Virus record (IMG/VR): IMGVR_UViG_2563366989_000001
Direction: 5' to 3' (one strand)
From: a virus
Taxonomy: Duplodnaviria > Heunggongvirae > Uroviricota > Caudoviricetes
Length of the DNA stretch: 37,433 bases
Every line of letters starts with the position of its first letter. Position 1 is the stretch's first letter. Shown piece by piece: positions 19,402 to 32,213 of the stretch. The notes under the pieces were generated by a model that saw nothing but the letters and a program-made list of their open reading frames with translations, had not been told where the DNA came from and ran no database searches. The translations under genes and the position numbers were made by a program.

Positions 19402-19874
19402 ACCTCAATCTCTCTGACCGTTCCACCTGCTTCTTTGAATTTTGCAATCAGGCTGTCTGCCTTATGCTCGAACTGACCATAACCAGCACCCGGCAGTGAA
19501 GCCCAGATATTGCTGCAACGGTCGATAGCCTGACGGATATCACCGCGATCAATCATCGGCAAAGCGCCACGCTCCTTAATCTGCTGCAGCGCAACAGCGT
19601 CCTGGCTTTTGGGAGAGAAGTCTTTCAGGCCAAGCTGCTTACGGTAGGCATCCCACCAACGGGAAAGAAGCTGGTAACGTCCGGCTGCTGTTGATTTGAG
19701 TTTGGGGTTTAGCGTGACAAGTTTGCGAGGGTGATCGGAGTAATCAGTGAATAGCTCTCCCCCTACAATGACGTCATAACCATGATTTCTGGTTTTCTGC
19801 CGTCCGTTATCAGTTCCCTCTGACCACGCCAGCATATCGAGGAACGCCTTACGTTGATTATTGATTTCCACCAT
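19398..19874 (-). CDS. R: Endolysin R (lambda-type lytic transglycosylase)
   Basis: 158 aa, [39 protein letters not shown]... matches lambda R almost residue for residue as recalled. Confidence 0.95.
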
Positions 19875-20181
19875 CTTCTACTCCGGCTTTTTTAGCAGCG
19901 AAGCGTTTGATAAGCGAACCAATCGAGTCAGTACCGATGTAGCCGATGAACACGCTCGTTATATAAGCGAGATTGCTACTTAGTCCGGCGAAGTCGAGAA
20001 GGTCACGAATGAACCAGGCGATAATGGCGCACATCGTTGCGTCGATTACTGTTTTTGTAAACGCACCGCCATTATATCTGCCGCGAAGGTACGCCATTGC
20101 AAACGCAAGGATTGCCCCGATGCCTTGTTCCTTTGCCGCGAGAATGGCGGCTAACAGGTCATGTTTTTCTGGCATCTTCAT
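19858..20181 (-). CDS. S: Holin S (lambda type) with dual-start motif
   Basis: [41 protein letters not shown]... matches lambda S; Met1-Lys-Met3 dual start conserved. Confidence 0.95.
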
Positions 20182-20306
20182 GTCTTACCCCCAATAAGGG
20201 GATTTGCTCTATTTAATTAGGAATAAGATCGATTACTGATAGAACAAATCCAGGCTACTGTGTTTAGTAATCAGATTTGTTCGTGACCGATATGCACGGG
20301 CAAAAC

Positions 20307-20336
20307 GGCATGAGGTTGCGCTAACAACCTCATGCC
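20307..20336 (-). other. Strong hairpin (11-bp stem, 8-nt loop) between the tRNA genes and S; candidate terminator or RNA-processing structure
   Basis: ggcatgaggtt-gcgctaac-aacctcatgcc perfect inverted repeat; on the minus strand followed by GUUUUG. Confidence 0.4.
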
Positions 20337-20423
20337 ACCCGCTTTCACGAAGGTCATGTGTAGAAGGCCGCAGCATAACTATCACTGATGAATTCAGGAT
20401 AGCCAGTGGCTACGGCTCAGTTA

Positions 20424-20499
20424 TGGTGCTGGTTAACGGACTTGAACCGCTACCCATTCGCTTACAAGGCGACTGCTCTACCATTGGAGCTAAACCAGC
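20424..20499 (-). tRNA. tRNA-Thr (anticodon UGU)
   Basis: Hand-folded cloverleaf: perfect 7-bp acceptor stem, D-arm GCTC/GAGC with GG in the loop, anticodon loop CTTGTAA, T-loop TTCAAGT, encoded CCA end. Confidence 0.7.
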
Positions 20500-20504
20500 A
20501 TGTT

Positions 20505-20579
20505 TGGCGGGACAGCGTGGACTCGAACCACGATAAGAAGATTAACAGCCTTCCGTAATGACCTTTATACGACTGACCC
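20505..20579 (-). tRNA. tRNA-Asn-like (anticodon GUU), imperfect; possibly a degenerate or phage-adapted tRNA
   Basis: Anticodon arm GAAGG-CTGTTAA-TCTTC and T-arm CGTGG-TTCGAGT-CCACG resemble E. coli tRNA-Asn; acceptor stem has a U-U mismatch, D-stem only 3 bp; encoded CCA. Confidence 0.5.
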
Positions 20580-20583
20580 AAAT

Positions 20584-20626
20584 AAAAAAAGCCACCGTTG
20601 CAACTTAAGAGTCACTAACGGCAGCT
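20584..20626 (-). terminator. Candidate tR'-like terminator immediately downstream of the Q-like gene
   Basis: Minus-strand RNA GCUGCCGUU...AACGGUGGC (two G-U pairs, large loop) followed by UUUUUUUAUU. Confidence 0.45.
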
Positions 20627-20642
20627 TACCTTCTAATTATGG

Positions 20643-21161
20643 CTAAATGGATAATTGCATGTCAAGGCTTTTAACAGCAACATGCTTAACTTTCTCAACA
20701 CGTTTACGCATTTTGAAAGCATTTTGCATTGGCTGGTACAAAACAAATAACGACGCTTTCAGGATGTCGTCAATTTCGTTTCTACAGGTTGCCAGTGAAG
20801 GTTTTCTCCATCCCTCGCCACCACGTCCACACATCTTGCGTGGCTTTGCAGTCGCGTGATAGTAGGATGCAATTGCTCGCTTAGATGAACCATGAGCGTA
20901 GTAGCTAAGGAGGATGCCAAAGGCTTTCTTGTCAATGCACATGACGGAATCGACGACCTGAGAAATCAACATTCCATCATCATCATTGCACATTGGCCTT
21001 GTCATAACTCTTCCCGGCTCTACGCTCTCCATGAACTTCGCTATTACGCTGCTCATGCGCTTTTCCAGACGACCTGAATAAACCCATGCGCCCCACAGTT
21101 CAAGCCAGCCATTCAGCCACTCGTGCTGCTCTTTGGTGAGGTTTAGTTCTCTTATGCCCAT
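20643..21161 (-). CDS. Q: Late-gene antiterminator Q-like protein (not lambda-Q type)
   Basis: 172 aa immediately upstream of the lysis cassette and after ninH; Cys/His-containing; strong SD (GAGGGG). Confidence 0.6.
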   Translation of the reverse strand: MGIRELNLTKEQHEWLNGWLELWGAWVYSGRLEKRMSSVIAKFMESVEPGRVMTRPMCNDDDGMLISQVVDSVMCIDKKAFGILLSYYAHGSSKRAIASYYHATAKPRKMCGRGGEGWRKPSLATCRNEIDDILKASLFVLYQPMQNAFKMRKRVEKVKHVAVKSLDMQLSI

Positions 21162-30726: not shown

Positions 30727-30897
30727 ATGTCACTTGCAACCACAGTGAAGGAGAGCAAGTTACAGAGACGCATGTACACGCAGAAAGCTCTCTGGTATCG
30801 CCATAATGGTGACCGCGAAGGAATGCGGGTATGCCTTAATTTGTCCCGAGTCGAAGTATTAAATCAGCGTTATTTCCTTGGGCCGTGTCCATTCTGA
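30727..30897 (+). CDS. Possible small protein (56 aa)
   Basis: ATG 30727 with AAGGAG 6 nt upstream; an alternative overlapping frame starts at 30648; below ORF-track cut-off. Confidence 0.35.
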   Translation: MSLATTVKESKLQRRMYTQKALWYRHNGDREGMRVCLNLSRVEVLNQRYFLGPCPF

Positions 30898-30907
30898 GAA
30901 CAATCAT

Positions 30908-31513
30908 ATGAGCAAAGAATTTTACGCAAGACTGGCAGCTATTCAGGAGAATCTGAACGCGCCAAAGAATCAGTACAACTCATTCGGCAAATATAAATAC
31001 AGAAGCTGCGAAGATATTCTTGAAGGCGTTAAGCCGTTACTGAATGGTCTGTTTTTATCAATCAGCGATGAAGTTGTGTTGATTGGTGATCGGTATTACG
31101 TGAAAGCCACGGCAACTATTACCGATGGCGAAAACAGTCATACGTCAACCGCTCTTGCACGAGAGGAAGAAAGCAAGAAAGGAATGGATTCTGCACAAGT
31201 TACGGGAGCTACAAGCTCTTATGCACGCAAGTATTGCCTCAATGGTTTGTTCGGCATTGATGATGCGAAAGATGCAGATACAGACGAGCATAAACATCAG
31301 CAGAACGCAGTAGCAAAGCAATCAAAACCATCACCTACACCTGAACAGGTTCTAAAAGCATTCACTGACGCAGCAATGCAGAAAAACACCGTAGAAGAGC
31401 TTAAACAGGCGTTCGCCAAAGCGTGGAAGATGCTCGAAGGCACACCTGAGCAGCACAAAGCGCAGGACGTTTACAACATCAGACGAGACGAATTAGAAGG
31501 AGCTGCTGCTTAA
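30908..31513 (+). CDS. erf: Erf single-strand annealing recombinase (P22 Erf-like)
   Basis: MSKEFYARLAAIQENLNAPKNQYNSFGKYKYRSCEDILEGVKPLL resembles P22 Erf as recalled; start at ATG 30908. Confidence 0.75.
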   Translation: MSKEFYARLAAIQENLNAPKNQYNSFGKYKYRSCEDILEGVKPLLNGLFLSISDEVVLIGDRYYVKATATITDGENSHTSTALAREEESKKGMDSAQVTGATSSYARKYCLNGLFGIDDAKDADTDEHKHQQNAVAKQSKPSPTPEQVLKAFTDAAMQKNTVEELKQAFAKAWKMLEGTPEQHKAQDVYNIRRDELEGAAA

Positions 31514-31919: not shown

Positions 31920-32213
31920 ATGCCAGCGCCTCTGTATGGTGCGGATGACGCGCGCCGCTGTTCCGGCAATTCCGTATCGGAGGTGCTGGATAAATTCAGA
32001 AAAAACTACGACCTGATAATGTCGCTACCGCAGGAAACGAAAGAGGAAAAGGAATTTCGCCACTGTATATGGCTTGCAGAGAAAGAAGAACGCGAGCGAA
32101 TTTACCAGACATCAATCCGACCATTCCGCAAAGCCACATATACCCACTTCCCTGAAATTGACCAGCGCCTGCGTAATTACCGCTCACGCTATGGCGCTAT
32201 CAGTAATGACTGA
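31920..32213 (+). CDS. Hypothetical protein
   Basis: 97-aa ORF, ATG 31920 with AGGA upstream. Confidence 0.5.

Follow-up and report, generated by a model that had tools for sequence, protein, structure and literature searches.

Tandem tRNA-Asn and tRNA-Thr genes between the late terminator and S of a P22-like E. coli phage: probable Q-dependent tRNAs for codon supply and nuclease evasion

We found that two tRNA genes lying between the late antiterminator gene Q and the lysis gene S of a P22-like (CUS-3/Sf6/Kapi1-type) E. coli podophage are best explained as Q-dependent late-operon tRNAs that serve both codon supply and nuclease evasion, a model that we consider likely. The analysis covers a 37,433-nt stretch of DNA, hereafter the window. 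The tRNA-Asn/tRNA-Thr cassette is already known, having long been annotated in phage 21, Sf6 and SfI, and our finding mainly confirms that annotation; its wider interest comes from published work in which an identical tRNA-Thr acts against the P2 Old nuclease.

The 551-nt stretch from Q to S matches 184 phage records. It is 97.3% identical to Sf6 across the 551 nt, and all of its elements are annotated there, namely the late promoter P_R' (“nearly identical to phage 21 late promoter”), qut, the terminator t_R' and the tRNA-Asn and tRNA-Thr genes (“similar to phage 21”). Asn and Thr tRNAs are also annotated in BTP1, SfI, SPN9CC and others. Previous studies have described tandem tRNA genes downstream of Q in SfI and also in Sf6, ST64T, PS3 and p21 (PMC3636060), and Asn/Thr tRNA genes present in P22-like prophages in the paper on epsilon34 (PMC2629481). 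Furthermore, 831 of 5426 complete E. coli genomes (~15%) contain the cassette, the top listed matches being annotated as tRNA-Thr and tRNA-Asn (PGAP).

Across the 37.4-kb window, ARAGORN called two tRNAs and no others, each on the minus strand: tRNA-Asn(GUU) at 20579..20505, with G73 and an encoded CCA end, and tRNA-Thr(UGU) at 20499..20424, also with an encoded CCA end, so that the order of transcription is Asn and then Thr. Both genes are likewise called by Rfam, with cmscan scores against RF00005 of 61.5 bits for tRNA-Thr and 52.4 bits for tRNA-Asn (gathering score 29). The first-pass annotation of this DNA had placed two tRNA genes between Q and S on the basis of a hand-counted cloverleaf, and both loci are thus accepted by a tRNA predictor. 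The genes are separated by the 5-nt spacer AACAU (20500..20504, minus strand), whose U is position -1 of tRNA-Thr; among the matches listed, the spacer reads AACAT in 41 loci and AATAT in 41 loci.

Each of the two tRNAs forms a cloverleaf when folded alone, and the anticodon loop of tRNA-Asn has 7 nt. AsnRS recognizes G34, U35, U36 and G73 as identity elements and ThrRS recognizes G1-C72, C2-G71, G35 and U36, all of which are present in the window sequences. Not all stem positions are standard pairs in the cmscan alignment, however: tRNA-Asn has an acceptor-stem U4·U69 and a U13·U22 that shortens its D stem to 3 bp, and tRNA-Thr has a G27·A43 mismatch, which leaves a 4-bp anticodon stem. The alignment agrees with the U-U acceptor mismatch and 3-bp D stem previously counted by hand in tRNA-Asn.

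Next we examined the proposal, made in the same annotation, that tRNA-Asn may be a pseudogene. A decaying pseudogene or non-functional tRNA-like relic would be compatible with its two non-Watson-Crick pairs, U4·U69 and U13·U22, and with a single-sequence fold that is only marginally better than that of shuffled sequences (z = -1.0), but not with a Rfam score of 52.4 bits against a gathering score of 29. We scanned IMG/VR for the tRNA-Asn D-arm and obtained at least 120 loci, of which the 116 with full context represent 23 sequence variants; covariation was tested on 22 distinct full-length Asn variants with 500 shuffles and slid-partner controls. We found that six stem pairs of tRNA-Asn and eight of tRNA-Thr are changed on both sides, and for neither tRNA did any of the 500 shuffles reach the covariation score. 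Pairing in tRNA-Asn falls from 90% to 34-52% when the partners are slid, and the slid controls give 0.00-0.08 vs 0.16-0.18 for the true Asn and Thr covariation. The tRNA-Asn acceptor stem exists in three versions (CAG/CUG, CGA/UCG and AGG/CCU), as does the anticodon stem (GAAGG/CCUUC, GCAGG/CCUGC and GCUGG/CCAGC). The mismatches, in contrast, are constant: 4:69 is unpaired in 20 of the 22 Asn variants and 13:22 in all 22, and G27·A43 of tRNA-Thr is unpaired in 20 of 22. Because they stay constant while other pairs covary, U4·U69 and U13·U22 are traits fixed in a molecule under constraint.

The tRNA-Asn lineage conserves the anticodon loop, G73 and CCA, 77 of the 116 Asn loci are identical among the matches listed, and the rare variants mostly keep pairing. 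The pairs changed on both sides and the population data, with the mismatches fixed, rule out the pseudogene, a reading to which we give almost no weight. Single mismatches leave tRNA function possible, and those of the Asn and Thr genes are fixed features of their lineages and not decay. Collectively, these comparisons make purifying selection on both tRNAs evident at the sequence level and strongly support the interpretation of both products as functional elongator tRNAs.

The window copy of tRNA-Asn itself carries a C39>U change (plus-strand A at 20541), making a G31·U39 pair. This variant is found in 1 of the 116 IMG/VR loci among the matches listed, and no 100% match to the 221-nt query was found in the 5426 E. 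coli genomes. Two IMG/VR loci carry a chimeric tRNA that begins with the 5′ two-thirds of tRNA-Asn and switches, inside the T loop, to the 3′ end of the adjacent tRNA-Gly (...GGTTCGATTCCCGCTACCCGCTCCA); recombination between the T loops has apparently deleted what lay between them.

The genes are preceded by a complete late control region on the minus strand. Q (21161..20643) is a phage-21-type late antiterminator with a 172-aa ORF that shares 82% identity with phage 21 Q (E = 6e-99) and has homologues annotated as Q in Sf6 and BTP1. The late promoter P_R' (TTGACA-18-CATAAT, 20665..20636) overlaps the 3′ end of Q, matches at 11 of 12 positions in a promoter scan, has a -35 element that is invariant across the alignment and bears the annotation “P R' / pQ promoter” at the same position of the Sf6 and phage 21 records. 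It is followed by a late leader RNA of ~50 nt comprising the qut region and t_R' (20629..20580), as indicated by the fold and by the annotation of phage 21 and Sf6, the Sf6 record placing qut and t_R' at the leader position. The hairpin core of t_R' occupies 20625..20591 with a U7AU3 tract behind it (20590..20580), and its free energy of -20.8 kcal/mol (z = -4.5) was matched by no shuffle. A simple terminator scanner did not list t_R', presumably because the stem carries a bulged A, but the thermodynamic fold recovers it.

After the hairpin comes UUUUUUUAUUU, the last base of which is 20580, and the next base is G1 of tRNA-Asn (20579). The 50-nt “aRNA” of the phage 21 record maps exactly to window 20629..20580, indicating that the terminated leader ends one base before G1. 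The stretch of 206 nt from the predicted start to the CCA of tRNA-Thr folds as three independent units, a hairpin and two cloverleaves. The distance from the U tract to tRNA-Asn, earlier given as about 5 nt, is 4 nt when measured from the U7 run and 0 nt from the whole U-rich tract.

We found no promoter between t_R' and tRNA-Asn, either by scan or by eye, and P_R' is the only sigma-70-like site upstream. The best -10-like string before tRNA-Asn, TATTTG, is without the essential final T, and its start would fall inside the tRNA. With a gap of 0-4 nt and P_R' as the sole promoter-like site found, the earlier suggestion that the tRNAs have no room for a promoter of their own holds. Furthermore, the same junction recurs behind different terminators: among the matches listed, G1 of tRNA-Asn adjoins the U tract of a 21-type t_R' in ~82 loci, that of a lambda-type t_R' in ~15 loci (e.g. 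HK446), and two other terminator hairpins in one locus each. In a three-way alignment with the window, lambda and HK446 are the same through t_R' up to TTTTTTAT and diverge thereafter, lambda having ~163 nt of unrelated sequence where HK446 and the window have the ~160-nt cassette; homology to lambda resumes at AACTGAGCC, directly after the CCA of tRNA-Thr. We also considered the ~163-nt lambda segment as a decayed tRNA relic and rejected this, as the segment has no Rfam match at E<=10. Since the Asn/U-tract junction is the same behind different terminators, the cassette is, judged by its junctions, a portable module with its left edge inside the terminator U tract.

Transcription of the cassette must, on this layout, come from polymerases passing t_R', whether Q-modified or by leak. 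The 0-4 nt gap, the presence of P_R' as the only site and the recurring junction together leave read-through followed by processing as the only route compatible with the architecture, and Q-dependent read-through with RNase P processing is thus strongly implied. A Q-independent expression from an unrecognised promoter has a precedent in the Stx2a phage Sp5, for which a primary start was mapped between t_R' and the tRNAs (PMC7547250), and in Klebsiella phages tRNA-Asn lies ~85 nt past the annotated terminator with no U tract ahead, leaving room for a promoter. In the window, however, the gap of 0-4 nt, the unfit TATTTG and a scan that finds P_R' only argue against it, as does the unchanged U-tract junction after three or four different terminators, and we regard such a promoter as improbable here.

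In the Q-dependent model, P_R' would start a transcript ~50 nt upstream of tRNA-Asn, making the tRNAs the first genes of the late operon. Without Q, RNA polymerase would halt at t_R', whose U tract ends one base before tRNA-Asn; Q-bound polymerase would read through, and both tRNAs would then form the 5′-most part of the late RNA. RNase P would cleave both tRNAs at G1, with trimming of their encoded CCA ends. Both tRNAs have U at position -1, the base that E. coli RNase P prefers there. We found no RNA or direct expression data for the Asn-Thr cassette in the literature, and the paper on phage L states that it is not known which of excision from the late mRNA or an own tRNA promoter applies (PMC8022706).

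Downstream of tRNA-Thr, a spacer of 242 nt common to lambda (20423..20182, minus strand) forms the 5′ UTR of S. We found that this spacer is highly structured (-98 kcal/mol, z = -8.2), far better than shuffles, and ~96% conserved among the window, Sf6, BTP1 and HK446, with lambda aligning closely throughout. S itself (20181..19858, minus strand) is a holin/antiholin with a 107-aa ORF, annotated as holin in Sf6 and HK446; it is the first protein gene of the late operon, and R and Rz come after it.

The position of the tRNAs exactly between the leader and this structured 5′ UTR (z = -8.2) raises the idea that the cloverleaves are mainly RNA punctuation, with RNase P detaching the leader and terminator and setting the 5′ end of the lysis mRNA, and decoding being incidental; a non-tRNA segment of ~163 nt filling the same slot in lambda is in keeping with this. 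But lambda manages without a tRNA-like element there (no Rfam match, E<=10), the anticodons, identity elements and CCA ends are conserved, and the Thr tRNA decodes ACA in vivo (PMC12445682), all of which makes a punctuation role as the main function very improbable.

Within the S 5′ UTR lies a 12-bp hairpin, GGCATGAGGTTG-TTAGCG-CAACCTCATGCC, followed by GTTTTG (20335..20300, minus strand). Its loop is reverse-complemented relative to that of lambda, Sf6 and HK446 (CGCTAA; BTP1 has CGATAA), and from the sequences looks like a hairpin “flip” through template switching. The arms are perfectly complementary in the window alone, each relative having one mismatch. The hairpin might be a weak second terminator ahead of S; as a conserved, covarying second terminator it was rejected, given one stem mismatch per relative and no clear compensatory pattern.

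We then compared codon usage between the phage and a host sample of 36 E. coli genes. ACA makes up 30% of phage Thr codons vs 14% in the host sample and reaches 17.7 vs 6.8 per 1000 codons, a 2.6-fold enrichment (p = 8e-12), and Asn codons reach 48.6 vs 34.7 per 1000, a 1.4-fold enrichment (p = 2e-7). The ACA enrichment agrees with the ACA bias reported for SfI (PMC3636060). In E. coli, ThrU is a single-copy gene, while the median copy number of host tRNA-Asn genes is 4. Under the preferred model, the tRNAs would sustain ACA and AAC/AAU decoding during the translation of ACA-rich late genes.

Pure codon supplementation (ACA, AAC/AAU) in late expression with no role in defence would account for both enrichments over the 36-gene sample and for the single copy of ThrU, and the same argument has been made for SfI (PMC3636060) and phage L (PMC8022706). 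It sits less well with the median of 4 host tRNA-Asn copies and with the SfI authors' observation of no codon bias that accounts for Asn. Furthermore, it leaves unexplained two features of tRNA-Thr, the G27·A43 mismatch (20 of 22 variants) and the lack of CNG motifs, which are precisely the two features shown to give resistance to Old, and it does not address why a Thr tRNA identical to that of the window rescues Old toxicity when host Thr tRNAs do so little or not at all. We consider supplementation as the sole function unlikely.

These features relate to recent work on P2 Old, the agent of P2-lambda interference, which kills by cutting the host tRNA-ThrU (Govande et al. 2025, PMC12445682). 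The two Old cuts in ThrU fall at paired CNG motifs of the anticodon stem; Old acts on host Asn(GUU) as well, at a slower rate, and is triggered by RecBCD inhibition by lambda Gam (PMC12445682). Old toxicity is relieved by phage tRNA-Thr(UGU) genes, while the protection from host Thr tRNAs is slight or absent (PMC12445682). Phage 21 tRNA-Thr21 “also protected against P2-OLD”, although the rescue was only partial and the tRNA was expressed on a plasmid under an E. coli promoter; the authors ascribe its resistance to changed base pairs and an anticodon stem of reduced length (PMC12445682).

We found that the window tRNA-Thr is base-for-base identical to tRNA-Thr21, as given by the GenBank phage 21 record AJ237660. 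At nt 28-30/40-42, host ThrU has CUG/CAG and the window tRNA-Thr has UCG/CGA with no CNG, and the 5-bp anticodon stem of host ThrU compares with an unpaired G27xA43 in the window; the window tRNA-Thr thus combines the three marks of an anti-Old tRNA, namely the UGU anticodon, changed CNG motifs and a shorter anticodon stem. The anticodon-stem triplets of tRNA-Asn differ in the same manner, being CGG/CCG in the host and AAG/CUU, without CNG, in the window. However, Klebsiella phages have a lineage of this Asn in which both CNG motifs are retained (CAG/CUG), indicating that Old resistance is not universal in this Asn lineage.

A second nuclease with overlapping targets is AriB of PARIS, for which the efficiency is highest on Lys(UUU), followed by Thr(UGU) and then Asn(GUU); AriB cuts between nt 40 and 41, distal contacts matter too, and escape from PARIS requires a resistant tRNA-Lys(UUU) (PMC12409363). 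At the AriB site, host ThrU reads UAAUC|A and the window tRNA-Thr reads UAAGC|G, with positions 39 and 41 both changed. The window tRNA-Asn reads UAAUC|U, with a host-like U39 and a changed position 41, and the Sf6/21 type reads UAACC|U; the C39>U change in the window recreates a host-like U36AAUC motif beside the cut site. ARAGORN, which called two tRNAs only, found no tRNA-Lys in the window, and a phage without tRNA-Lys cannot by itself defeat PARIS as T5 does.

The preferred model joins these lines of evidence: the Thr tRNA would be a nuclease-resistant substitute for the single-copy ThrU, the lethal target of Old and a main target of AriB, and the Asn tRNA would probably replace, in the same way, host tRNA-Asn, which both nucleases cut as a secondary target. 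On this view, codon supplementation and nuclease evasion may be two sides of one supply function. Under this model, the cassette may give prophages that carry it partial immunity to P2 Old, a classic system of exclusion between phages.

A narrower hypothesis takes the Asn-Thr pair as a dedicated counter-measure against Toprim anticodon-stem nucleases (Old, AriB and relatives), in which the Asn tRNA is also a resistant stand-in and the dose depends on Q. In this case the CNG-less Asn stem, and perhaps also the U4·U69 and U13·U22 mismatches, would aid resistance, and the fusion to the t_R' U tract would make the dose strictly Q-dependent, with terminator leak only in lysogens. If true, it would account for the recurrence of these two anticodons across lambdoid phages, P1, N4 and T5-like phages, and also for the purpose of the Asn tRNA, a question left open by the SfI authors. 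We put it forward tentatively, as possible and less probable than the combined role in supply and evasion.

We also observed that the early-left operon of the window encodes, on the plus strand, the Erf recombinase (30878..31513) and a P22-type anti-RecBCD protein, Abc2 (31920..32213; PF11043, E = 6.3e-63, full length). P2 Old, like other defences, responds to interference with RecBCD, and Abc2 may act as a trigger of Old.

Among known systems, phage 21, Sf6, SfI, BTP1 and many P22-like prophages have the same genes in the same order and place, from t_R' to S. The window is 97-99% identical to the phage 21, Sf6, SfI and BTP1 cassettes over 551 nt, with tRNA-Thr at 100% and tRNA-Asn differing by one base, and 99.4% identical to phage 21 over the tRNAs. 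Beyond C39>U in tRNA-Asn, it differs from the phage 21/Sf6-type cassettes by the flipped loop in the downstream hairpin, and in promoter and Q subtype it resembles Sf6 and not phage 21. While the window tRNA-Thr is identical in sequence to tRNA-Thr21, the published test was plasmid-based (PMC12445682) and the window copy stands in the context of a late operon. The T5 set has two of its three anticodons in common with the window, but the sequences are unrelated and T5 has a tRNA-Lys, which the window does not; around the 40|41 cut, the window tRNA-Thr is substituted at 39 and 41 and the window tRNA-Asn has the host-like U39.

The Stx phages 933W and Sp5 likewise carry tRNAs between a Q-controlled terminator and the first late protein genes, with different anticodons, the genes being ileZ, argN and argO. 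In Sp5 a separate promoter was mapped between t_R' and the tRNAs (PMC7547250), for which the window has no room. The second tRNA of ST64T and phage L is a divergent one and is not Thr. That of ST64T (locus L005, 1587-1655) scores 42 bits in Rfam with no ARAGORN call, and an alternative fold of its anticodon region, CCTTCCTAAGAAGG, gives a 5-bp stem capped by a 4-nt loop; in the phage L paper the divergent second tRNA is interpreted as Leu(UAA) (PMC8022706). The Klebsiella lambdoid phages Mulock (locus L006, 1501-1820) and 2b LV-2017 (locus L008) have longer arrays, e.g. Asn-Phe-Thr-Arg, of the same Asn and Thr lineages, with no U tract directly upstream and with both CNG motifs kept in the Asn anticodon stem.

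P1, N4 and CMS-2020a have the same Asn-Thr anticodon pair, adjacent or nearly so, in another genomic context. Their tRNA-Asn belongs to a different lineage, with a GAUGGUG acceptor stem and no 4:69 mismatch, and the tRNA-Thr of P1 keeps both CNG motifs and a 5-bp stem. We also found recombinant tRNA-Thr genes that are phage-like over the first 25 nt at the 5′ end and resemble host ThrU from there on, one IMG/VR locus matching ThrU exactly in that part. One of these, in JLK-2012 (locus L004, 1587-1662), has a 3-bp anticodon stem and was missed by ARAGORN but scores 49 bits in Rfam; the same phage carries, downstream of tciB, a match to the Rfam sRNA STnc100 (locus L004, 2567-2739; 107 bits) that is absent from the window. 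In P1 the Asn-Thr pair is followed by tciA/tciB, and JLK-2012 has a lambdoid Asn-Thr-Gly array followed by the same two genes, linking the cassette to the P1 arrangement.
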